A stretch of 64,000 nucleotides of DNA from a virus (lineage: Duplodnaviria; Caudoviricetes): positions 32,001 to 96,000 of the IMG/VR virus record IMGVR_UViG_2576861548_000003, one strand, 5' to 3'. Shown in pieces: positions 2,629 to 61,500 of this stretch. Under the pieces are notes generated by a model. It was not told where the DNA came from. It made no database searches and saw only the letters and a list, made by a program, of their open reading frames with translations. Made by a program: the position numbers and the translations under genes. Numbering within the stretch: the stretch's first letter is position 1; every line of letters begins with the position of its first letter.

Positions 2629-3147
2629 TTATTTAATATTTGTGCTCTTTATGTCGCTCGTTGAAATATCCGACCCACTTGCATGAGCACATCTGGCAAC
2701 ATTTTCCTGACGGGCAAGAGTTTTTTTATTTTGTTCTTGCATTGATTCTATGGTTCTCTGCTGAGATAATACGGTTTCTGTTAATCTTGATAATTGCTCA
2801 AAGACTTCCCGGCTCATAGAGACTGAGCTACTCTGTAGTTCTAATCTTTGTTCTACAAGTTCATCTAAGATTTGTTCTCTTAATTTTTCTTTATTACTTC
2901 TAGGGACACTTTTTTCAATAATGCCAGCTATAGTATCTCCTTTTATAAACATTGGCACATCGGCTCCATCTAGCCATCCTGGGGTTAAGTGATACTTGCT
3001 TTCTAATAAATATTTGTTTTTATCTGTTAGGGATACATTCCCGATTTCTATCTGTGAATAACTATTTTGCTTCATGCATAGAACTTCTGCAAGTTGCGAT
3101 TGAGTCATTCTTAGATATTTTCTCAGATGTTTTAATCTATTATCCAT
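2629..3147 (-). CDS. CI-like XRE repressor
   Basis: RLKHLRKYLRMTQSQLAEVL..YSQIEIG HTH; divergent from Cro-like gene. Confidence 0.85.
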   Translation of the reverse strand: MDNRLKHLRKYLRMTQSQLAEVLCMKQNSYSQIEIGNVSLTDKNKYLLESKYHLTPGWLDGADVPMFIKGDTIAGIIEKSVPRSNKEKLREQILDELVEQRLELQSSSVSMSREVFEQLSRLTETVLSQQRTIESMQEQNKKTLARQENVARCAHASGSDISTSDIKSTNIK

Positions 3148-3495: not shown

Positions 3496-3507
3496 AACTA
3501 TTGAGCA

Positions 3508-4062
3508 ATGAAAGATTTAGAATTTTACATCTTTGAAGATCAGCTTTGGTGTATGTTTTCTGATGGCACTAACAAACCTGTTACGGACAAAGATACGTCA
3601 TTGGTAAAAAATATACTTGATCGTATACGGGAATGTTATCCGGATGCTTATAAAGCACTGATGGAATGTTATCAAAAAAGTTCTCAAAATATACCATACT
3701 TCCAGTACCTTATGGCTAATCGGTTTTGTAAATGCAATTTTGGAGAACTGGATAATACGACCCGTGATATTGACAAAGGAGGAAAATTTAACTTTGAACG
3801 TGTCAGTTGCCCAATGCGTGGAGAGTGTAAATATGAAGGAGTCATTTGTGATCCTCAATTTGATAGTCGTATATCAGATGCGGAAATGAGAGTTATGCGC
3901 TTAGTATACGAGGGCCTTAGTAATGAAGATATTGCAGATAAACTTTATTTATCTCCACATACAGTTAAAAATCACATCAAGTCAGTTTATCTGAAGCTTG
4001 GTATCCATGAAAAGTCTGAGTTTATTCAATACGTACATAAAAATAACCTTTTCAAAGATTAA
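3508..4062 (+). CDS. LuxR-type HTH regulator with Cys-containing N-terminal region
   Basis: ISDAEMRVMRLVYEGLSNEDIADKLYLSPHTVKNHIKSVYLKLG. Confidence 0.88.
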   Translation: MKDLEFYIFEDQLWCMFSDGTNKPVTDKDTSLVKNILDRIRECYPDAYKALMECYQKSSQNIPYFQYLMANRFCKCNFGELDNTTRDIDKGGKFNFERVSCPMRGECKYEGVICDPQFDSRISDAEMRVMRLVYEGLSNEDIADKLYLSPHTVKNHIKSVYLKLGIHEKSEFIQYVHKNNLFKD

Positions 4063-4274: not shown

Positions 4275-4761
4275 TTGATATTCAAATAGTTATACTAAGT
4301 TAATGACGCAAAAAATACAAGTTTAACGTTTGGATAAAAGTCAAAAACTATATAGTTTTACATCATAAATAATAGATAATCAATAAGTTATGAAAAGAAC
4401 ACCTCTTTTGACTATTTGGGTTTTATCATTTGTTGTAATGATATTACTTGCTAATCCTGAAAAAGTTTTATTCTGGATTGCGTTTGTGATATTTTCTTGG
4501 TCTTCACTATATATTGAGAAACACAAAAAAAGACTTAAGGAAGAAGATGAATAGTAAACGTCCATATATTGTCCAAGATGTAACATTGGTAACATACAGT
4601 GGACGTCGGATTTCCCTCTCTTTAGTAGAGTATAAGATTATAGATGTCCCTGTTAGACTTGTTAAAGAAAAAATACTTGATTCTTTTTCTGCAATGGTTG
4701 ATAAACCTGTAGATGTAGAATTAAAAGTAAGATACATATAAATAAAGCGTACATAAGAGCA

Positions 4762-4941
4762 ATGAAAACGAAAGAAGAATTACTGGCAATGAAGCATGAA
4801 GACTTGGCTTTATTCGCATACAAAATCATGTATGAACAATGCCTTCTTGAAGACAAAGAAAAAGAGAATAAAAAATTAAAAGAAATACTTAATATGATTG
4901 GGGTTACGTATGAAACTTACAAATCAGAATTTAGTGAATGA
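4762..4941 (+). CDS. Small hypothetical protein (not in ORF track)
   Basis: ATG 4762, MKTKEELLAMKHEDLALFAY.., 59 aa, preceded by AAGAGCA start motif. Confidence 0.55.
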   Translation: MKTKEELLAMKHEDLALFAYKIMYEQCLLEDKEKENKKLKEILNMIGVTYETYKSEFSE

Positions 4942-7587: not shown

Positions 7588-7796
7588 TGAAATCGGACAT
7601 TATAATTAAACAATTAGATAATGGTTGTTTTGACGTACATGTTGATGACAAAAGTACAGATCAATTATCATTTGATGAAATGCTTGGGGTTGTTGCACAA
7701 TTGACTGTACCCAAAAATAAAAGATGCCTTCAGTGGCTTAAAACTAAGGAACAGCATGAAAGTTTTAGGAATAGAAATTTAAAAATAGAGCAATGA
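7584..7796 (+). CDS. Hypothetical protein
   Basis: 70-aa ORF overlapping neighbours' stop/start. Confidence 0.6.
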   Translation: MMKSDIIIKQLDNGCFDVHVDDKSTDQLSFDEMLGVVAQLTVPKNKRCLQWLKTKEQHESFRNRNLKIEQ

Positions 7797-8713
7797 ACAC
7801 ACAATTAGCAATTCAAGAAAGCGACCTAGAACTGGTCGTGAGTGAAAAGACGTTAGGTAGTCTTACTACCAACGCAAAACAAATCAGAGATATGGTAAAA
7901 GCCGCTTTGCCAATGTATGATATCTCCAATTATACAGATGATAATATCGATCAAGCAAAAAAAGATAAAGCGGCTCTAAACAAAGCGGCCAAAGCTCTCA
8001 ACTCCAAACGTCTTGAAATAGAGAAAGAGTTTATGAAACCTTTCGGGGAGTTCAAGGACGTTGTAACCGAAACCGTAAAACTTATTGGTGAGTGCTCTGC
8101 TAGGATTGACACGGTAGTCAAGCAGAACGAGCAGCAATACAAGGACAAGAAGAAAGCCACTATCAAGACCTACTTTGATGGAATGAACGTAAATCTTGTA
8201 GACTTTAACAAGGTTTTCAGGTCTGAATGGCTCAACAAGTCATCCAGTATGAAATCTGTTTGTTCTGACATTGATGCTATATTTGCTAAGGTAGAGAACG
8301 AACTTTCTACCTTAAAGGGGTTTGGTGAGGATTTCGATGTCCTCCGTACTTATTATATGGATACGCTCAACATCACATCCACCATTCAGTATGCCAACCG
8401 TCTGAAAGAGCAGCGTGAGCGTGCCAAAGCAGCAGAAGAGGCGCGCATCAAGGCAGAGCAGGAAAGAAGGGCTTCCGAAGAAGCCCGTAAAGCTGCTGAA
8501 GTAGAACAAGCCAAATCCCGTCCGATCAATCCGTTTGCCATGGCAGGACAAAAAGCCAACGAACAACCTCCTTTTATTAATCATCCCGAAGTACAACAGC
8601 CTGAGCTGTTAACGAGAGCTTTCAAGGTTACTACTACCCGTGAGAATATCATTGCTTTGGGTGACTTCATGAATGAAAAAGGTATTGATTTTGATAAAAT
8701 AGAATTGCCATGA
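7793..8713 (+). CDS. DUF1351-like coiled-coil phage protein
   Basis: AKKDKAALNK..RLEIEKEFMKPF; usual neighbour of Bet/Exo. Confidence 0.75.
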   Translation: MNTQLAIQESDLELVVSEKTLGSLTTNAKQIRDMVKAALPMYDISNYTDDNIDQAKKDKAALNKAAKALNSKRLEIEKEFMKPFGEFKDVVTETVKLIGECSARIDTVVKQNEQQYKDKKKATIKTYFDGMNVNLVDFNKVFRSEWLNKSSSMKSVCSDIDAIFAKVENELSTLKGFGEDFDVLRTYYMDTLNITSTIQYANRLKEQRERAKAAEEARIKAEQERRASEEARKAAEVEQAKSRPINPFAMAGQKANEQPPFINHPEVQQPELLTRAFKVTTTRENIIALGDFMNEKGIDFDKIELP

Positions 8714-16515: not shown

Positions 16516-16714
16516 CTAACACTTTAAAATATAAAACAATGAAATACGAAGTTTCTAAGAAAGGTTCAAGCGTAACATTTAAGTTCGAAACATACGAACA
16601 GGCGGCTGATTTCTGCTATATGTATGTCATGTCAATGCACGTGAAAGGTGATAGATTCCCTGAACTTTCAATTAGAGAGATAAGCGAGTAATCAGAACAT
16701 TAAAATTTAGAGCA

Positions 16715-17119
16715 ATGGACAATATTTTGAACTCAACAGTTGAAATGAGCCAAGCAGAACTTATTCTTCAGTTGGCCAAGACGAATGTGGAACAAGAGAA
16801 AAGGCTTAAAACTACAGAGCTAAGATTAAGCGCACTCGAAGAGGAAATAAAAAAGTTGTCTTCAAAGTGCATTGGTAACTATGGGTGCTCCACCATGTCA
16901 TCATATATCCAGAGGTACAAATTACCGATTTATGTGAGTGACATTTCGAAGCTTAGTAATGATGCTGCACGATTATGCAGAAAAAGGGGGTATCCGGTCA
17001 ATAAGGTAAATATTGAACGTTTCGGTGCAATCAATGTTTATCCGGACTTCATTCTTCATGAACTACTGGATGACTATATAAGGACCACACAGCGTCTTAA
17101 TGGAAGTATAATAAGATAA
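16715..17119 (+). CDS. Hypothetical protein, antirepressor C-terminal-like
   Basis: AELILQLAKTNVEQEKRL coiled coil; FGAINVYP. Confidence 0.55.
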   Translation: MDNILNSTVEMSQAELILQLAKTNVEQEKRLKTTELRLSALEEEIKKLSSKCIGNYGCSTMSSYIQRYKLPIYVSDISKLSNDAARLCRKRGYPVNKVNIERFGAINVYPDFILHELLDDYIRTTQRLNGSIIR

Positions 17120-23264: not shown

Positions 23265-23636
23265 TTAAAGATAAAGCCTTGTGAATAAAACGAGTAATGT
23301 TTGTTTACAAGTGGAAAAATAAGTAACTTTATACCTGTAAATCAGAAATATATAAAATATAAGAGCAATGAAAACAATTAGAAAATTAACTGAAAGGGAA
23401 GTGGTACTCAACAGGCTCACACAACCTATTCTTATGCCTGTTATTTACTCACTAAATTACAAAGTTAGTAACCAAACAGATGATAATTCAAGGTTATCCA
23501 GTAATTTGTAACGGCATTCATAATGCCGAAAGGCATCTTAAGCCTATGTGCAAACAATGCCTGTTGTATACCAAAGTAAAGCAGCCATCGAGAAGTTCAT
23601 GGCGCATAAGTGGAATTGAAAAATGTATCATAAATC

Positions 23637-29671: not shown

Positions 29672-29753
29672 TTTGGTTAACTCGTTGATAATGACTATCT
29701 TTACAATACTAAAAGAAACCAATAATACTAATCATTAAAAGACAAGAGCAATG
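29672..29753 (+). promoter_or_regulatory. 82-bp promoter/leader cassette, copy A
   Basis: 75/82 identical to 41418..41499 by manual count; contains TATCTTTAC. Confidence 0.75.
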
Positions 29754-30401
29754 AATACTTACCACAAATTCTGTCCAAATGTATTTTTAGCAAAGTGCGA
29801 AGAAAAGCACGAAAGAGGTGAAGAAATTCTAGTTACCACTAGGTATGGCAAAGAAAACGAAAGCATAGTTTTCAATCTAATTTTTGAGAAAGACGGTTTT
29901 TACTATTACTCCATCGTACGTGCTGACGGTTTTAACGTTCAGGAATGGGCTAAGCAAAGAGCGGAACGCAGACGTGAATGGGTTATATCGGCAGAACGTA
30001 AAAGTAAAGAGTACTTTGACAGGTCTAATAAAGATAGAGATTTTCTTTCACTTGGTGAACCTATCAAGATTGGTCACCATAGTGAAAAACGTCATAGAAA
30101 AGCAATAGAGGATGCTTGGAATAATACCGAAAAAGCTGTTGCATTCAGCGATAAGGCTTTAGAGCATGAAAGCAAAGCCGAATATTGGGACAAGCGCGCT
30201 AATACAATCAATTTGTCTATGCCGGAAAGCATTGACTTCTACGAACACAAGTTGGAACAAGCGAAAGAATACCATGAAGGTGTAAAGTCTGGCAAATATC
30301 CGCGTGAACATGCTTATACTCTTACTTATTCCAAGAAAGCAGTTAATGAAGCACAAAAGAATTACGAACTGGCTAAAAAGTTGTGGGGAGACGAACTATG
30401 A
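29751..30401 (+). CDS. DUF3560-like protein
   Basis: GEPIKIGHHSEKRHRK. Confidence 0.8.
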   Translation: MNTYHKFCPNVFLAKCEEKHERGEEILVTTRYGKENESIVFNLIFEKDGFYYYSIVRADGFNVQEWAKQRAERRREWVISAERKSKEYFDRSNKDRDFLSLGEPIKIGHHSEKRHRKAIEDAWNNTEKAVAFSDKALEHESKAEYWDKRANTINLSMPESIDFYEHKLEQAKEYHEGVKSGKYPREHAYTLTYSKKAVNEAQKNYELAKKLWGDEL

Positions 30402-30579: not shown

Positions 30580-33039
30580 TTGAATATGGTACAGTTGATA
30601 TTAGAAAATAGACTTATAGGTAATTCGGGCTGGATTGTTGAGTATTTCGATGTGCAAGGTTCAAAGTACATCAATACCGTAAAGATAAGAGGAGACAAGG
30701 ATTACCAAATAGGAGATATATTCAACGCAATAGAGTATGGACATGATGGACTAAGTAGCTACCAACGCAAACACGGCATTGAGTATGACGGAATAAGTTT
30801 CCAATCCTCCATTGAAAAAGCAGAGGTTGAAATACTCTTGAATTTTCATTTGATAGACGAACTCAAAAAACGCTTCAAACCATGTTTCGTTTACCAAGAA
30901 GAATGGATGAACGAAGATGACTACGATGAAGCTGTTCGTGATAAAGCAAAGGAAATTTATGTTGATATTATAACTAATCTTTCTGAGGAATTGCATAAGG
31001 ACTTTGAAGAGATAGATGAATCGGTGTCAGTCAATGAATACGATGATATTATATGTAGTTTTAGTAGTCAAATCATAAATTATACAGCATGAAAACGAAA
31101 GTAACTAAAGATGGTTTTATATGGCTTGTTGTACCAAGTGACGACGCAATGGAAATGTGGAAATCAAAGACAGCCGAATTGTATATACTCCACAATGATG
31201 ACAGCGAAACAATGGTTGAAACCGATTTACAAGTGCAACGTGCCACATTCAGCGGAGAGCAGATTGGCATCGAAGTAGGATTCATCAAAGACTTGCTTCC
31301 TGTTTGCCCCAAATGTGGCAAAAGGCTTGTTCCAAGTGACAATCCTGAATATGTTTGGCAGTGTTATGAATGCGATGAGGATTTTTATTCATTTGAAGTG
31401 TGTAATGGAGACCAAAACCAATAAAGCGATTTCACTACTCCAGTGCGGTGATTTTAAAGCCGCACTGACTATTTTCTCCACTTTTCGCATTGGATTTACC
31501 AAAGAAGAGCAAAGAACCTTGAAAATAGCAAGCGAAAGCCTTTCTGGTAATTCCTCGTTCTATCGTCAACTTGGAATTGATACCGACAAAGCGATAGAAA
31601 AAAGTAAGTCTATTATTACATCGAAGTACTTGAAAATGAAATAGTTAAACAAAGTTTAAGTTATGTATGTTTGTGGTTTAAACTATTGGTAATCAATATA
31701 TTATTTGTATCTTTACATATCAAAAATAACAAAATACGTAATCGCGGAGACGCTTACAAAATAATCAATGAGAGCAATGAAAAAGATAGAACAAATGACA
31801 TCCGAACTTAACCGAGTATTGCATTCTAACACCTACCAATTCGAGATTGACACCGAAGATTTTGTTTTCGGTTTCAAGGAAACAATAAGAACGAGGACTA
31901 AGGATTTGGCAATGGCTATTAAGCTTGAACAAAAGGTAACAAGGGACTGCGGACGTTTCCTGTCCGACACCGTTAGAATCGTATCTGTAAGAATTTACAA
32001 AAACGGTGATTTGAGAAAAGAAATTCATGCTGAAGAAATAACAGCATCATATAATGGATAAAATATAGAGCAATGAAAACATTGAAAAAATTAACAAGCA
32101 AAGAAAGCTTTGCCATCCTTAGAGAAATCGAAAGCAAGAAATGTCCTAATGGCGTTAAGTATTCAGAGTGGAGAGAGGAAAGAGATAGACTACAGACGGA
32201 AGCCATCAGAAATTTAGTTCCCGAAGTCGGGCTAGGTTGTACCGTATGTTACTATTCTGACAGGCGAGCAGCTACTGTAACCAAAGTTATTTCTCCATGC
32301 AAGATTGAGGTTACATTTAATCAAACGGAATGTATCGACTACTATGCTGGTGATTATAAGATTTTACCAGAACTTGAAGGTGGACCAAAGGTGTTCACTA
32401 AAAGGAGAAATGGCCGTTGGGTGGCAGATGGGCAAGCGTACAAGGACGGTGTTTTGCTTATGCTTCATTATCAAAGTCATTATATTGATCCACGTTTTTA
32501 GCATTAAAAGCAATGAAAGCAAATAAAATAATGTTCCTATACTATCCTTGTATAGTAATTGTATGTGAATCAATGGAAACCCCTAATTCCAAAGACCCGG
32601 AAACAAACGATCTGAGGGAATATGCTAGAATAGTTAGATTTTCATATGAAACAAAATTTTTCCCTTATTTTGAATTTATCCCTGCTGGTTCAATTGAATG
32701 GACTAAGCATGCAGATATGCTTAGCAAAGAACAAAGAGACAGCATAGAAAAACGTTCCCAACAATTGCGGGAAGAGGATAAAGAGCGGATTGATTATTTC
32801 AACAAACTAAAAGAAGCAAGTATAAAATCACATAACCAACATAATAATAAGCAATGAAAACAACTGTAAAAGTGTATTTAAGAGATGAACAAGGTAATGA
32901 AGACTACTTCATTACTCCTATTAACTTATCAGAGCAAGAAGCTCACAAGTACTATCTCGGTAACATCTTCAATATGGGGTGCGAAACAGATCACATGATG
33001 AAATGCTACAAAGTTGAGACAATAAAATCATCAAATTAG
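30580..33039 (+). other. Cluster of small hypothetical genes (30580, 31089, ~31404, ~31777, 32073, 32513, 32854)
   Basis: Co-oriented small ORFs, several with (AG)AGCAATG starts. Confidence 0.6.
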
Positions 33040-33977: not shown

Positions 33978-34050
33978 GGGAATTTAGCAAAGATGGTCTA
34001 TGCGTCGGACTAAAAATCCGAAGAACAAGGTTCGAATCCTTGAGTTCCCA
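33978..34050 (+). tRNA. tRNA-Phe-like with AAA anticodon
   Basis: GGGAATT/AGTTCCC-A acceptor, TCGGA-CTAAAAA-TCCGA anticodon arm, CAAGG-TTCGAAT-CCTTG T-arm. Confidence 0.8.
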
Positions 34051-34275
34051 CAGTCTTGTATCAATGAACGCACCACTCTATCCGAATTGAAGACGGGCGT
34101 CGGGTCTGTCTGAAGATAGGAAAGCCGATAGAGTAGCAGATAGAAAGGGGAAGGGTAAATCCGAAATAAGTCCCAGAGAGTATCTATCAAGGTGGATTCC
34201 CACAAAATCATGTGGCAGTTGACGGTGACGACATGGCGGTTCATAATGTTGGCAGCTTGGAATAGACAAGCATTT

Positions 34276-34345
34276 GCGGAAATAGCTCATCGGTAGAGCG
34301 TTGGCATTCCAGCCAAAGAGTGGGGTTCGATTCCCTGTTTCCGCT
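34276..34345 (+). tRNA. Atypical tRNA-Gly(TCC)-like
   Basis: GCGGAAA/TTTCCGC-T acceptor; GCTC/GAGC D-stem; TTGGC-ATTCCA-GCCAA 6-nt loop; TGGGG-TTCGATT-CCCTG. Confidence 0.8.
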
Positions 34346-34464
34346 CTAATGCCGTTAAACTCGGCTCGTTGATTGAGGTTGTGTAAAGTAAGCGACAAGG
34401 TTCGATTCCTTGCATTTAGTTGGTACTGCAAACAATCTGACAGCGTGGAAAGACACGCAAATTT

Positions 34465-39389: not shown

Positions 39390-39747
39390 AAAATACAGGT
39401 TGAATACAAGGCAAAAGAAAACATTGTTTCTAAAAGCCCTTGATGCAAGACTTCTTAATGTGACGAAAGCATGCGAGGCCGCAAGTATATGTCGTTCTCT
39501 TGCTTATAAATGGAGAGAAAATGACCCCGAGTTTAAAGCGAAATGGGAAGAGGTTGAAGAAGCGTTCAAAGACAAAATAGAAACGTGTATGTTCACAAAA
39601 GCTATTACGGAACAGGACAATACTATGCTTATTTGGCTAAGTAAAACTAAGCTTCGTGATAGAGGCTACGTAGAAAAGATTGAACAGGATTTGAACGTGA
39701 ACCCGTTTGAAAAACTTATGCAGGAATTGCCAGATGATGAAGAATGA
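39376..39747 (+). CDS. terS: Terminase small subunit
   Basis: NVTKACEAASICRSLAYKW HTH, KLRDRGYVEK; precedes TerL; start uncertain (39355 or 39376). Confidence 0.8.
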   Translation: MEKDRKYRLNTRQKKTLFLKALDARLLNVTKACEAASICRSLAYKWRENDPEFKAKWEEVEEAFKDKIETCMFTKAITEQDNTMLIWLSKTKLRDRGYVEKIEQDLNVNPFEKLMQELPDDEE

Positions 39748-41258
39748 CAATAGCAGATGAAAAATCTTTGCGGAAAATCAAATCATGGACAGAAGACTGG
39801 AATAGGTTTGTGCGTGATGCTCTTAAAGCTCGTTTGGATAAGGAGCAACAGGATATTATTTCATCTGTGCAGTACAATCCTATGACAGCTGTTGCATCGG
39901 GAACAGCTCGTGGTAAGGACTTCGTGGCGGCCTGTGCATCTTTGTGTTTCATGTATCTTACTCCTCGTTGGAAAGATGGGAAGTTGACTAAAAACACTAA
40001 AATTGCTATGACAGCGCCTACCGCTCGTCAAGTACAAAATATTATGATTCCGGAAATCTCACGTTTATACAGGAATGCAGGTTTCCTTCCGGGAAGATTG
40101 TTGTCGTCAGGTATAAAGACTGATTACGAAGAGTGGTTCCTGACGGGGTTTAAGGCGGGTGATGATAACACCGAAGCATGGTCCGGTTTTCACGCTGTAA
40201 ATACGATGTTTGTTGTTACCGAAGCTTCTGGTATTTCTGAATCAACGTATAACGCCATTGAAGGTAACTTACAAGGTAATTCTCGTTTGCTTATCGTGTT
40301 TAATCCGAATGTTACTACCGGTTATGCCGCACGCGCTATGAAGTCGGAGCGTTTTGCAAAATTTCGTTTGGATTCTCTTAATGCGGAGAATGTGGTATCT
40401 AAGAAAGCTGTAATTCCAGGACAGGTAAACTACGAGTGGGTTAAGGATAAAGTTGAGAATTGGTGTTCTCTGTTACAGAAAGCAGATTTCAATGAGGGAG
40501 AGGGAGATTTTACATGGGAAGGTAAGTTATATCGTCCAAATGATCTTTTCCGTGTCAAGGTCAGAGGTATGTTCCCTAAAGTTTCCGAGGATGTACTTAT
40601 ACCTTATGAATGGATAGAAATAGCAAACAGAAATTGGCAGGAATTACAGGCAAGCGGCTTCATTCCATCCAAATCGTGCAAGTTAGGTGTTGACGTGGCT
40701 GGTATGGGACGCGACAATAGTGTACTTTGTCCTCGATATGGTAACTATGTGGCGCAATTTGAAGTACATCAATCCGCTGGTCGAGCAGACCATATGCATG
40801 TAGTCGGTATGGCGATACCCTATTTGAAGAAGAGGGGAGCTAAAGCATTTATTGATACGATAGGAGAGGGGGCAGGTGTTTATTCCCGCTTGTTAGAAGA
40901 AGAATTTACAAATGCTTTTTCATGTAAATATTCAGAAGGTGCGGATGGATTGCATGATATTACCGGAGAATATGAATTTGCCAATATGCGCGCATATTTG
41001 TATTGGGCTTTGCGCGACTGGCTCAATCCTAAAAATGGATTTGGTGCAGCTTTACCTCCATGTGACCAGTTAATGGAAGAAGCGACTGAAACTAAATGGA
41101 AGTTTCTCAGTAATGGAAAGATTATCATTGAGGCTAAAGAAGACATAAAAAAACGTATCAAGCGTTCTCCTGACTATATGGATGCATTAGCGAATACATT
41201 TTATCCTAGGGATTACAGCTTTATTAGCGATGAAGAGCTGCTCAAAGATTTTTTGTAG
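39744..41258 (+). CDS. terL: Terminase large subunit
   Basis: ASGTARGKD Walker A, VVTEASG Walker B variant, LGVDVAGMGRD, RSPDYMDAL. Confidence 0.93.
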   Translation: MTIADEKSLRKIKSWTEDWNRFVRDALKARLDKEQQDIISSVQYNPMTAVASGTARGKDFVAACASLCFMYLTPRWKDGKLTKNTKIAMTAPTARQVQNIMIPEISRLYRNAGFLPGRLLSSGIKTDYEEWFLTGFKAGDDNTEAWSGFHAVNTMFVVTEASGISESTYNAIEGNLQGNSRLLIVFNPNVTTGYAARAMKSERFAKFRLDSLNAENVVSKKAVIPGQVNYEWVKDKVENWCSLLQKADFNEGEGDFTWEGKLYRPNDLFRVKVRGMFPKVSEDVLIPYEWIEIANRNWQELQASGFIPSKSCKLGVDVAGMGRDNSVLCPRYGNYVAQFEVHQSAGRADHMHVVGMAIPYLKKRGAKAFIDTIGEGAGVYSRLLEEEFTNAFSCKYSEGADGLHDITGEYEFANMRAYLYWALRDWLNPKNGFGAALPPCDQLMEEATETKWKFLSNGKIIIEAKEDIKKRIKRSPDYMDALANTFYPRDYSFISDEELLKDFL

Positions 41259-41286
41259 TTGTGTTTCTTTTAGTACCTTTGTAACC

Positions 41287-41354
41287 GAAAACACTTCTTT
41301 TGTGTTTTCATTGCTCTTATGTGCACTGGCTTGTGAAAGTCGGTGCCATTTTTG
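41287..41354 (+). ncRNA. Putative trans-acting sRNA antisense to phage start-codon regions
   Basis: -7 element TACCTTTG 41274-41281; hairpin-seed-terminator layout; 19-nt complement to 4751..4769. Confidence 0.55.
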
Positions 41355-41417
41355 TTCTATGTCAAAAGTTAAATCTTTGATTTAGAGAGGTTTGTTGTAA
41401 AAATAAAAGTGCAAATG

Positions 41418-41499
41418 TTTGGATAACTCGTTGATAATTATTATCTTTACAATACAAAAAGAAACCAATAATACTAACAATTAAAAGACAAGGGCAATG
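41418..41499 (+). promoter_or_regulatory. 82-bp promoter/leader cassette, copy B
   Basis: Repeat of 29672..29753. Confidence 0.75.
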
Positions 41500-42286
41500 A
41501 AAGCAACAACAATCCAACAGAGAATAATAGAAAAGTTCATCATGTCAGAGTTTGTACAAGGTAACTTAGATACAAAAGAACAGGTTAGCTGTATGCTTAT
41601 CCTAATTCAAAAGAAGCTGAATATGTCAGTAGAGCAAGCAAGTGACTTTATGAGAAAATCAATTGGTATTAACGCTTAATACACACGATTATGAAAGTAT
41701 ATGATATAAATGGCAATGTAGTAGCAGAAGGCTATTTAGTTCCCAATCCCAATTTCATTCCTAAAGGTGAATACAAAGAAACTGAACTGGATTATCAAAA
41801 GAAGCAAGCTGATATGTTGATAACTTCAATTGATGGCAGTTTCTATGAAATCAGTTTGCCTAAAAATGCTACACTTCGCCAGAAGATAAGCAAAGATATA
41901 AAAGGATATGGCAGAAACGTAAGAAGGTATAATGAAGATATAATTCATGTAACAGAAAAAGTCCTAAAGATTTTGCAAACTAAATATACTATAATGTGTG
42001 ACTTTTAAAAATAGATATGACACAAGATCGACTTGATATATTTGAAAAAGTACTCCTTCTTTATGGAGAATACGTCTTACTCAATCTTTATTCTTCTGCT
42101 AAAGTTATGGAAAGGTACGAAGATTGTGCCATTATGCGAGATTTGATGAAAAGGCACAATATTGATGAACGTAATGAAATCCAGGATTGGCAAGCTGAAT
42201 TATGGCGTTGTGGATATTCTGGTGAAATTGCTGGCATTAACTTTCCATATTATATGCATGAAGCTGTAAAAATGGTAGGTTATTAG
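41497..42286 (+). other. Three small accessory genes between terL and portal (41497, 41691, 42017)
   Basis: 60, 105 and 89 aa ORFs behind their own promoter cassette. Confidence 0.65.
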
Positions 42287-42311
42287 ATAAATATTATTAT
42301 TTTTTTTGTTT

Positions 42312-42348
42312 AAAAGTGGCATAGTGAATGTCACTTTTGTTATATTTG
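42312..42348 (+). promoter_or_regulatory. Palindromic promoter motif, copy 3 (portal)
   Basis: AAAAGTGG-N11-TCACTTTT-N2-TATATTTG. Confidence 0.75.
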
Positions 42349-42471
42349 CACCATAGCATCTGATGCTAACGTATCCTTTCACGTTCTCGGGTATACGTAT
42401 TGTTTTATCCGGTCCCTTTTGGAAGGTATTTATTGTTGTTCAACTAATTACCGTATGAAGATGTACGGAAC

Positions 42472-43878
42472 ATGCCCATGGATGAAATAACCGCTATATT
42501 AGACAGTACCCGACCTGTTGATAATATTATCAACGACTTAAAAGAGAAATCAGTCTGTGTCCCCTCATGGGATAAACTTATCAAAGACTATGAACCAACG
42601 ATGCACGACATAGTTACTGATACTGTTACTCGTCAAAACAAGGTAAGGTCTGACGGTACGGTAGAGCAAGCTTCACGTATCTATGTTGGTCTTGAAAAGC
42701 TTCTAACGAAGCGAATAACAGAGTTCATGTATTCTATTCCGGTAAAACGTATATATCACAATATAGAGGGTAATCCTACCAGACAACAAATAGCAAAAGC
42801 GATCGAAGCAATATACAAGTATGCTCGTATTGATAGTGAGAATATTAAGCGAGGTAATGCTTACTTTGCATCATGTGAAGTGTTCACTATTTGGTACACA
42901 GTTGAGAGCCCCAATACTCTATATGGTTTTACAAGTAGATATAAACTAAAATGTAAGACCTACTCACCAATGGACGGTGTTAAGCTATATCCTTTACTTG
43001 ATGAACTTGGTGATATGATCGCAATGTCTTTTGAATACACAAAAAAGGTCAAAAATGAACAAATTACTTTTTTTGAGACATATACAGCAAACATGCATTA
43101 TAAGTGGAAACAGGAGGGTAGCGGATGGGAATTAGTCAAATCAGAACCGGTTGCTATTCTAAAAATACCAGGAGTCTACGCCTATTGTTCGGTACCTATT
43201 TATCACGGGCTTTCCTATATCAGAAAAGAAATAGAATATACCCTTTCACGCAATAGCGATGTAATCGCGTATAATTCCGCTCCTATACTAAAAATAGCTG
43301 GTGGGATAAAGGGTAGTGAGAATAAAGGAGAAAGTCGTAGAGTTTATCGCGTAGAACAAAATGGGGATGTAGCCTATGTTTCGTGGGCACAATCTATCGA
43401 GGCATTAAAATACCATGTTGACACTTTAGTCAAATTGTTTTGGTCACAATCACAAATGCCAGATATCTCTTTTGAAAACATGAAATCTCTCGGTAATATC
43501 GGATTTGATGCAAGGCAGACTTTACTTACTGACGCTCATTTAAAGGTTGGAGACGAAAGCGGAGCGTGGATAGAAGCATTTGAACGCGAATGTAGTGTAA
43601 TTAAGGCCTTCTTGAAAATGATGAATGTTACGTGGAAAGGTGAAGTAGATAATGTTGAAGTTGAGCATGTTATTACTCCGTTTATCCAAAATGATGAAAA
43701 GTCAGAAATAGAGAAGTGGGTTACAGCCAGTGGGGGGAAAGCGGTTGTCAGTCAATTAGAGGCCATCAAGAACTTGGGCATTTCTACCGATCCGCAAGAG
43801 ACTCTCTCTCAAATTCAAAAAGAAGATGAAACTGCTTCTAGAATCAGAGTGAGCAACATATTTGAACAATCAGAATAA
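42472..43878 (+). CDS. Portal protein (SPP1 gp6-like)
   Basis: 468 aa; position between terL and MuF; SQMPDISFENM. Confidence 0.85.
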   Translation: MPMDEITAILDSTRPVDNIINDLKEKSVCVPSWDKLIKDYEPTMHDIVTDTVTRQNKVRSDGTVEQASRIYVGLEKLLTKRITEFMYSIPVKRIYHNIEGNPTRQQIAKAIEAIYKYARIDSENIKRGNAYFASCEVFTIWYTVESPNTLYGFTSRYKLKCKTYSPMDGVKLYPLLDELGDMIAMSFEYTKKVKNEQITFFETYTANMHYKWKQEGSGWELVKSEPVAILKIPGVYAYCSVPIYHGLSYIRKEIEYTLSRNSDVIAYNSAPILKIAGGIKGSENKGESRRVYRVEQNGDVAYVSWAQSIEALKYHVDTLVKLFWSQSQMPDISFENMKSLGNIGFDARQTLLTDAHLKVGDESGAWIEAFERECSVIKAFLKMMNVTWKGEVDNVEVEHVITPFIQNDEKSEIEKWVTASGGKAVVSQLEAIKNLGISTDPQETLSQIQKEDETASRIRVSNIFEQSE

Positions 43879-47702: not shown

Positions 47703-47726
47703 CGTTTATTATGATAGTTTAACATT

Positions 47727-47763
47727 AAAAGTGGCGTTGTTTATGTCACTTTTGCTACTTTTG
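47727..47763 (+). promoter_or_regulatory. Palindromic promoter motif, copy 4 (scaffold/capsid)
   Basis: AAAAGTGG-N11-TCACTTTT-N2-TACTTTTG. Confidence 0.75.
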
Positions 47764-47932
47764 TATCAGAAGCGTATGAAGATGTACGCCACAGAACTTG
47801 TCGTGTTGTGATTTGCTTCAATTTAGCACGATTGAACGAAACTCATTGCTCTAATGTTTAGTAAAGTTCTAAGCGAATAGTCTGCTGGCATACGTGCTAC
47901 GCAGACTATTTTTGTAATTAAAACATTGTACA

Positions 47933-52603: not shown

Positions 52604-52674
52604 GCGGAGATGGTGTAATGGTTGCATATATATCATCCAGATATCAGGTTACGGTTCAAGTCCGTATCTCCGCT
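52604..52674 (+). tRNA. Second atypical tRNA-Gly(TCC)-like gene, in tail operon
   Basis: GCGGAGA/TCTCCGC-T acceptor; TACGG-TTCAAGT-CCGTA T-arm; loop CATCCAG with A at position 33. Confidence 0.72.
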
Positions 52675-52748
52675 CTGTTTTTTGAGAATCTGATTTGTTG
52701 TTCATAATTTAATGTCGGTTGTCTGTGAAGATAGCCGATAAAAAATAA

Positions 52749-56864: not shown

Positions 56865-56901
56865 GTATGTGGCATTTAATACGTCACTTTTATTATCTTT
56901 G
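56865..56901 (+). promoter_or_regulatory. Palindromic promoter motif, copy 5 (tape measure)
   Basis: GTATGTGG-N11-TCACTTTT-N2-TATCTTTG. Confidence 0.7.
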
Positions 56902-61463: not shown

Positions 61464-61500
61464 TAAAGTGATTGTTTCAATGTCACTTTTGTTATATTTG
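61464..61500 (+). promoter_or_regulatory. Palindromic promoter motif, copy 6 (tail hub)
   Basis: TAAAGTGA-N11-TCACTTTT-N2-TATATTTG. Confidence 0.75.

Follow-up and report, generated by a model that had tools for sequence, protein, structure and literature searches.

The DNA analysed here, in the following called the window, comprises 64,000 nucleotides and spans positions 32001-96000 of a virus record that is 109,908 bases long and has been assigned to the proviruses. The source looks like a temperate Bacteroidales phage. Two minus-strand genes, one for an integrase (843-2084) and one for a repressor-like HTH protein (2629-3147), lie opposite a long array of rightward genes, and TAnnTTTG boxes are found in the window. 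Weak DNA matches to the window were obtained with Bacteroides fragilis phages, and relatives of its terL gene occur in assemblies of Bacteroides, Parabacteroides, Prevotella, Paludibacter and Dysgonomonas. Upstream of the integrase (window coordinates -32000 to about 800) a second phage-like gene set is located, and a second integrase-sized ORF is found at the far end of the record (76658-77908), so that the record may comprise two adjacent prophages. Three tRNA-like genes were reported by ARAGORN at 33978-34051 (Phe, anticodon AAA), 34276-34346 (irregular anticodon loop) and 52604-52675 (Gly, TCC), of which Rfam accepts only those at 33978-34051 and 34276-34346.

The gap between terL and the next ORF harbours a small element, the parts of which are compiled in Table 1. 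The initial annotation had described a -7 box, two hairpins with an open segment between them and a T tract at this site, and all of these parts were found again at the same positions. The box belongs to the Bacteroidetes -7 consensus TAnnTTTG as quoted in PMC7366714. The possible -33 element has to be regarded as weak, since its TTTG is not kept in a divergent lineage (L269). The 3' arm of the first hairpin (H1), GUGUUUUC, doubles as part of the antisense stretch, the remainder of which (41310-41322) is unpaired in the predicted fold; the CAU at 41309-41311 faces the AUG of the predicted targets. The second hairpin has a G+C-rich stem and, on the presumed transcribed strand, a T run behind it, as is characteristic for intrinsic terminators. 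From this arrangement a plus-strand RNA of about 68 nt is predicted (about 41287-41354), with a putative 5' end at the foot of H1, as would result from transcription starting a few bases past the -7 box. The predicted folding energy is -26.7 kcal/mol (z -6.0) for the plus strand and -16.0 kcal/mol (z -2.5) for the minus strand, and a T run 3' of the hairpin is present on the plus strand only. Neither strand contains a conserved ORF at the element, while the -7 box and the terminator are kept in sequence.

Table 1. Parts of the terL region and predicted target starts in the window; bp values are contiguous duplex lengths in register (CAU facing AUG) with G-U pairs allowed
Feature	Position	Strand	Remarks
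terL	39744-41258	+	238-nt gap to next ORF, RNA element inside the gap
Possible -33 element, TTTG	41252..41255	+	18 nt upstream of the -7 box; last terL codons, directly before the stop
-7 box, TACCTTTG	41274..41281	+	TAnnTTTG type (Bacteroidetes), presumed promoter
5' hairpin H1, GAAAACAC/GTGTTTTC	41287..41309	+	predicted fold: 8-bp stem, 7-nt loop
Antisense stretch (seed), UGUUUUCAUUGCUCUUAUGU	41303..41322	+	from complementarity and predicted fold
Intrinsic terminator	41323..41356	+	hairpin 41323-41346, 10-bp stem, GUGA tetraloop, then CAUUUUUGUU
60-aa ORF	41497-41679	+	downstream border of the terL gap
Predicted best target, 59-aa ORF (ATG 4762)	4749..4770	+	exact 19 nt (4751-4769); 22 bp with G-U
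Predicted target, 47-aa ORF (ATG 23368)	23357..23376	+	exact 18 nt (23359-23376); 20 bp with G-U
Predicted target, 142-aa ORF (ATG 32073)	32067..32082	+	exact 15 nt (32067-32081); 16 bp
Predicted target, ATG 31777, in-frame second ATG of a 97-aa ORF	31768..31783	+	exact 13 nt (31771-31783); 16 bp
Predicted target, 60-aa ORF just downstream of the RNA gene (ATG 41497)	41490..41505	+	16 bp, two G-U
Predicted target, 61-aa ORF (ATG 32854)	32850..32862	+	13 nt
Predicted target, 114-aa ORF (ATG 32513)	32509..32521	+	13 bp, one G-U
Predicted target, DUF3560 protein, 216 aa (ATG 29751)	29744..29755	+	12 nt
Weaker predicted target, 184-aa regulator-like protein, phrog_10300 (ATG 3508)	3503..3514	+	exact 11 nt (3503-3513); 12 bp
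Weaker predicted target, DUF1351 protein, 306 aa (ATG 7793)	7787..7797	+	11 nt
Weaker predicted target, 134-aa ORF (ATG 16715)	16709..16719	+	11 bp

Conservation and covariation of the element

A search of viral contigs with terL yielded 261 relatives, the best 80 of which were kept (terL 84-100% identical). Each of the 80 kept loci has the element within 140 nt after the terL stop codon, and 33 different sequences of it are represented. The seed UUUUCAUUGCUCUUAUGU deviates only in L064, where a single C is changed to U, which would still pair with the target G as G-U; the other kept loci share it unchanged. The model-aligned set A3 comprises 29 clear homologues, which have the core UUUCAUUGCUC in common apart from L064, and 26 of them have the form UUUUCAUUGCUCU. 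The -7 box of the homologues reads TA[C/T/A]CTTTG (TACCTTTG, TATCTTTG or TAACTTTG) and thus varies only at a degenerate 'n' position. Its six fixed positions never change, while the spacer of 4-5 nt to the hairpin varies freely. In two loci with another upstream context (L125, L160) the similarity starts at the -7 box.

More distant versions were found by a hairpin search and a covariance model. The element is also located directly behind terL genes of 68-81% identity (records G001, G002, G007, G008 and G009). A one-base deletion in the seed tail was observed in L197, L211 and G001/G002. In G008 and G009 both hairpins have wholly different stems around UUUCAUUGCUCUUAG, H1 being a different 9-bp stem, and the seed reads UUUCAUUGCUCU. 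Among 17 genome loci with terL of at most 76% identity, the covariance model found no element except for a degenerate copy (L285) without -7 box and without the first hairpin.

The pairing of both stems was evaluated in A3 (31 rows, 30 distinct), in which 98.9% of the cells are paired compared to 44-53% in slid controls, a count that is favoured by the fitting of this alignment to the model structure. Seven of the 18 pairs are changed on both sides, and none of 500 shuffles reached the observed covariation score. H1 shows compensatory changes (AC/GU to UG/CA) as well as G-U variants among the homologues. Conserved U-G and G-U pairs, present in 22 and 29 of 30 rows of A3, would be A-C mismatches if the minus strand were transcribed. 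Since A3 leans towards the structure, the terminator helix was recounted on the plain, unfitted MAFFT alignment A2, where 98.8% of the cells are paired versus 33-45% in slid controls and three pairs are changed on both sides. The plus-strand RNA gene proposed in the initial annotation is therefore backed by the conserved -7 box, the hairpin covariation, the G-U pairs that are possible on the plus strand only and the invariant exposed seed.

Some further observations concern the second hairpin. In L069 (4517-4599) the terminator stem-loop is flipped as a whole and reads as its reverse complement, with unchanged flanks. The hairpin core GGCUU-GUGA-AAGUC(GG), which contains a GNRA tetraloop, recurs in terminator-like form and with varied outer stems in many unrelated viral contigs (L194-L251), including records of 250-400 kb. 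Because this core is common in unrelated contexts, a match to the GGCUU-GUGA-AAGUC hairpin alone was not taken as evidence for homology. For this reason L212 (35.2 bits) and L208 (33.3 bits), whose scores derive mostly from the shared terminator hairpin, were rejected as members. L214, a candidate picked by eye from the hairpin search, was discarded as well; the covariance model did not recognize it. In records G003 and G004 no start of a gene of at least 40 codons matched the complement of the seed of L212 or L214.

The start-codon tag and its predicted targets

The complement of the seed recurs as a short tag at gene starts of the same phage. Eight exact reverse-complement matches had been listed for the window in the initial annotation, and all of them are present (19, 18, 15, 13, 13, 12, 11 and 11 nt). 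When the 20-mer was searched with up to three mismatches, three matches were obtained in the window versus 0.02 expected, and none of 100 shuffles reached three. For AGAGCAATG nine matches were counted versus 0.61 expected (0 of 100 shuffles reached nine), and each of the seven copies on the plus strand terminates with the start codon ATG of an ORF that is 47-306 codons long. Altogether, 11 in-register targets with duplexes of 11-22 bp are predicted in the window for the accessible seed (Table 1), a pattern expected of a trans-encoded sRNA. Some internal ATGs with G-U-rich pairings (31149, 8981 and 22839) were not counted as targets.

The ORF with the longest duplex (ATG 4762) belongs to the early rightward operon, just ahead of RecT, and the 16-mer of its start also heads homologous 59-aa ORFs in other phages. 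The ORF starting at 23368 is located behind a promoter-like gap. For the ORF starting at 32073, orthologues in G001 and G005 have kept GAGCAATG although codons 2-3 differ, and the DUF3560 homologue in G005 (213 aa) has a 16-nt match. Named target proteins in the comparison with PHROGs and Pfam are RecT (weak match), DUF1351, DUF3560 and the regulator-like protein; the small target proteins, which form the majority, had no family in either PHROGs or Pfam.

The tag is distributed unevenly over the record. RGCAATG stands at the start codon of 11 of 75 ORFs in the left arm and of one of 48 in the right arm (terS onward), the latter being the gene right behind the RNA, and at 0 of 54 starts in the adjoining phage-like gene set upstream of the integrase (Fisher tests, p 0.027 and 0.0026). 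A comparison of tag frequencies between phage and host, as had been suggested, gave 15 occurrences of the 11-mer AGAGCAATGAA in five Bacteroidales genomes (17.5 Mb) and 7 in the 64-kb window. Judged by this distribution, the start tag is not a host translation signal and, judged by its occurrence in related phages (see below), it is specific to phages carrying the RNA.

The ten best duplex energies all belong to tagged starts; these energies ignore the cost of opening the H1 3' arm, which is needed for full pairing. The background is noisy, with 53 of 3000 random windows at or below -18 kcal/mol, and at a threshold of -15 a reversed seed gave 12 starts and shuffled seeds 12.7 on average. Since the energy method is loose, contiguous pairing in register was preferred for the definition of targets.

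Records that contain the RNA have 3-10 ORF starts matching over at least 12 nt, and the records without RNA, G003 and G004, have none of this length. In G008, 10-11 starts read TA(A)GAGCAATG. Five further records were chosen for the presence of a tagged gene; the RNA was found in three of them, and one of those without RNA is only 40% complete. The other one, G010, is 97% complete; its terminase is a different one, and it has only one tagged gene and lacks the RNA. In the fetched loci at least 122 occurrences of the 16-mer were counted among the matches listed. Of the matches listed, at least 54 lie in the RNA gene by pattern (at least 55 with L118, in which one hairpin base is changed), at least 53 at the ATG of ORFs of at least 40 codons from about ten unrelated protein families, and at least 15 (at least 14 without L118) have short ORFs. 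In one lineage (L125, L157 and L177) a perfect 16-mer tag is located about 300 nt from the RNA gene in opposite sense, followed by a 5-codon frame that could be a leader peptide or a decayed target.

Joint changes of seed and target in relatives had been named as a further check, and such changes are present, although not universally. The RNA of G001 lacks one nucleotide of the seed and differs in a hairpin arm, and the start of the 59-aa gene of this record, a homologue of the 41497 gene, matches its own RNA perfectly over 23 nt versus at most 16 nt for the RNAs of other records. G008 and G009 have AUGAAAC instead of AUGAAAAC, in the RNA as well as in the best target. However, the best target of G008 fits the RNA of G005 better (18 nt) than its own (15 nt). 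A matrix of own versus foreign seeds is clear for G001 only, because the seeds elsewhere are too alike. The covariation between seed and target thus rests on few lineages, most seeds being near-identical, and part of the joint change could stem from gene conversion involving a gene start and the RNA gene. The start at 41497 reads AAGGGCAATG in the window and AAGAGCAATG (AAGAGCAATGAAAG) in 11 related loci, a change that is compatible with G-U pairing.

An additional copy of CATTGCTCTAA had been noted near 47844 in the leader of the scaffold gene. The copy does exist (47844-47852, minus strand) and is followed by a hairpin and a T run; its assignment to the same system found no support. The covariance model recognized no homologue of the element there (10.7 bits, E 4.9), and no equivalent copy was found in records G001, G002 and G005. 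We treated it as a chance occurrence, since one extra minus-strand 9-mer is within the range of chance.

Proposed function and competing explanations

Taken together, we consider it likely that the element encodes a trans-acting antisense sRNA that would block the start regions of an early or accessory regulon and repress its translation. It is read as a trans-acting repressor because its geometry is that of sRNAs blocking initiation: 13 exposed nucleotides and an A-U-rich hairpin arm would together span the mRNA positions -11 to +8. The analysis shows the sequence, the covarying structure, the strand, the conservation, the tag distribution and the joint change of RNA and target; transcription, timing and, from the geometry alone, repression are inferred. 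The RNA would be transcribed from its own host-type -7 box, to which read-through from terL may add. It would begin with the weak A-U-rich hairpin, expose AUUGCUCUUAUGU and end at the GNRA-capped intrinsic terminator. The exposed stretch and the H1 3' arm would then pair with the tag ACAUAAGAGCAAUGAAAAC, which reaches from -11 to +8 relative to the AUG. About a dozen genes of this phage carry it, all of them non-structural (early or accessory). Pairing over the start codon should bar the 30S subunit, and mRNA decay would probably follow too, so that translation of the whole tagged set would fall together. All tagged genes would in this way probably be turned down by one RNA.

The timing could be that of lysogeny and immunity, or that of a late shut-off of early genes. 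Expression in the lysogen would fit, because the promoter is a plain host-type box without the palindrome of the late promoters; the location behind terL equally allows a late accumulation of the RNA. The late promoters at 42341, 47756, 56894 and 61493 have a palindrome upstream, whereas the promoter of the RNA gene has none. This palindrome, ending GTCACTTTT(G/A), is fused to a TAnnTTTG box at 42311-42348, 47726-47763, 56865-56901 and 61464-61500. The units precede the portal, scaffold/capsid, tape-measure-sized and tail genes, and they look like a class of late promoters or operators.

Only tentatively, and with rather low confidence, may tag and silencer be regarded as a clade-wide RNA immunity, by which the RNA of a prophage would quiet its own tagged genes and those of superinfecting relatives. 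The resident prophage would make the RNA from the plain host-type promoter while its late genes are off. The early and accessory genes of superinfecting relatives would be shut down because they share the start tag. Tags would hop between unrelated genes, and escape would be achieved by changing RNA and tag together, as in G001.

Several other explanations have to be weighed against a trans-acting repressor. The element could be only the 3' end of the late terL transcript with protective or terminating hairpins, its seed being a passive inverted copy of a gene-boundary linker that serves recombination among these mosaic phages, with no regulation in trans. Such a view is in line with the constant attachment of the element to terL, with the GGCUU-GUGA-AAGUC hairpin being a common terminator in many unrelated phage contigs, with the degenerate copy L285 that has neither -7 box nor first hairpin, and with a tag that, like recombination linkers, is located at gene boundaries and hops among unrelated genes. 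A passive copy, however, would not stay invariant while the flanking stems are exchanged by compensatory changes, nor would it retain a -7 box whose fixed positions never change, and the only changes seen are compatible with G-U pairing or mirrored in the target. Moreover, linkers need neither a fixed ATG register nor the strict orientation bias observed here (seven plus-strand start copies in the window, 10-11 in G008). We therefore regard this explanation as improbable.

The dispersed copies of the shared 15-20 bp within one phage could also suggest a DNA site for a phage or host DNA-binding protein, comparable to the operator-like 'stoperators', with the copy behind terL as one more site. 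The phage encodes regulators, and another repeated operator-like palindrome exists at its late promoters. But the sites are asymmetric, in fixed register with the ATG and in one orientation at genes, and the tolerated changes obey the wobble rules of RNA. The only copy in the opposite orientation forms part of an RNA fold that covaries, contains G-U pairs possible on the plus strand only and has a terminator of its own. A DNA site needs none of these, and this possibility appears very unlikely to us. Finally, a mini-ORF on the minus strand might be translated, with the antisense stretch as its beginning and with the start tag of the other genes, an objection already raised in the initial annotation. 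On the minus strand the tag is indeed followed by an open frame of 13 codons (13 aa in the window). In relatives, however, the frame comprises 13, 41, 8, 23, 12 or 25 codons, and 35, 5 and 3 codons in G001, G002 and G008. With lengths from 3 to 41 codons the frame is not conserved, the peptides are unrelated, and loop indels of 2 nt shift the frame. The neighbouring genes all run in plus direction. On the minus strand the stems contain mismatches and a T run is missing. All this leaves translation of such a peptide scarcely conceivable.

Relation to known systems and transcript data

Regulation of phage genes by small RNAs has precedents among temperate coliphages. The c4 antisense RNA of P1/P7 and the CI RNA of P4 are small immunity RNAs that act in trans on repeated complementary sites in the early transcripts of their own phage and also serve to control lytic genes. 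Both have about two target sites, located in a single operon; they arise by processing of a longer transcript and work via translational coupling or termination. In contrast, the element described here would address about a dozen dispersed gene starts and has the form of a stand-alone unit of promoter and terminator. The Rfam family of C4 antisense RNA (RF01695) was not among the matches at E up to 10 in the region 41200-41420. Joint translational shut-down of many early genes is also known from the RegA protein of phage T4, which binds the start regions of many early mRNAs via a loose motif. Unlike RegA, the factor here would be an RNA using Watson-Crick pairing.

A known system in the same phylum is GibS of Bacteroides thetaiotaomicron, described in the sections of PMC7366714 considered here as a trans-encoded sRNA with a conserved single-stranded seed that lies over the start codons of several mRNAs and represses them. 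Like GibS, the element would be an intergenic RNA with a conserved seed predicted to pair across several start codons in the same Hfq-lacking phylum (PMC7366714). GibS, however, which forms an Rfam family of 142 positions (RF04182), is a host-chromosomal RNA with metabolic targets according to the same source, whereas the RNA predicted here has about 68 nt, is phage-encoded and would target the phage's own genes via a shared tag. The GibS model RF04182 scored 15 bits with the element (gathering score 115) and covered the terminator hairpin only, which indicates no homology.

For the tag itself, the start-associated sequences (SAS) of Cluster K mycobacteriophages are the nearest parallel in the literature, with a likeness that is functional only. 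As described in parts of PMC3203893, these short and asymmetric repeats mark the start codons of numerous non-structural genes from different families; they share one orientation, hardly occur in the host and are conserved across subclusters. The tag is likewise a short asymmetric start-codon repeat in one orientation that is rare in the host. The SAS (GGGATAGGAGCCC) is located 3-7 bp upstream of the start and includes a Shine-Dalgarno core (PMC3203893), whereas the tag includes the ATG and has no Shine-Dalgarno sequence. A partner RNA is not described in the considered parts of PMC3203893, while a candidate partner RNA is proposed here. Several Cluster K genomes carry exactly one SAS on the complementary strand (PMC3203893). 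By analogy, this lone site might lie in an antisense RNA gene.

Apart from tRNAs, Rfam gave no match at the gathering score in the window, and for the element only chance-level matches at E up to 10 were obtained. A full-text literature search yielded no description of a phage RNA that silences a start-tagged regulon. A phage RNA in gut Bacteroidales controlling a dispersed regulon of its own genes via start codons is thus undescribed as far as this search shows. If the proposed function is true, it would give a simple answer to the question why some phages put one short sequence on the starts of many unrelated non-structural genes. It would also name a candidate binding partner for the kind of start tag whose partner was left open in the considered parts of PMC3203893, and it would represent a regulon of start-codon pairing in a phylum without Hfq and mostly without Shine-Dalgarno sequences. 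The element family is widespread in samples from gut, rumen and wastewater, with 261 relatives of terL among viral contigs and holders in 10 studies, so that it could, in that case, matter for prophage stability and cross-immunity in the gut virome.

Regarding transcription, 20 holders were listed from sequencing runs of 10 studies, all stored as contigs. In the four RNA runs no assembled contig extends over 41287-41356, whereby standard libraries lose RNAs of 68 nt and contigs show neither strand nor ends. In a gut metatranscriptome (X9) a contig of 910 nt (41364-42273, depth 30) starts 8 nt past the T run and covers exactly the three small ORFs behind the RNA gene. In the same data set the coverage of terL is confined to the first 184 nt (depth 2.4) and that of the portal gene to 42371-42647 (depth 6). 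These data give a weak hint that the block 41364-42273 is expressed apart from the late genes. A contig from X11 covers 41471-42114.
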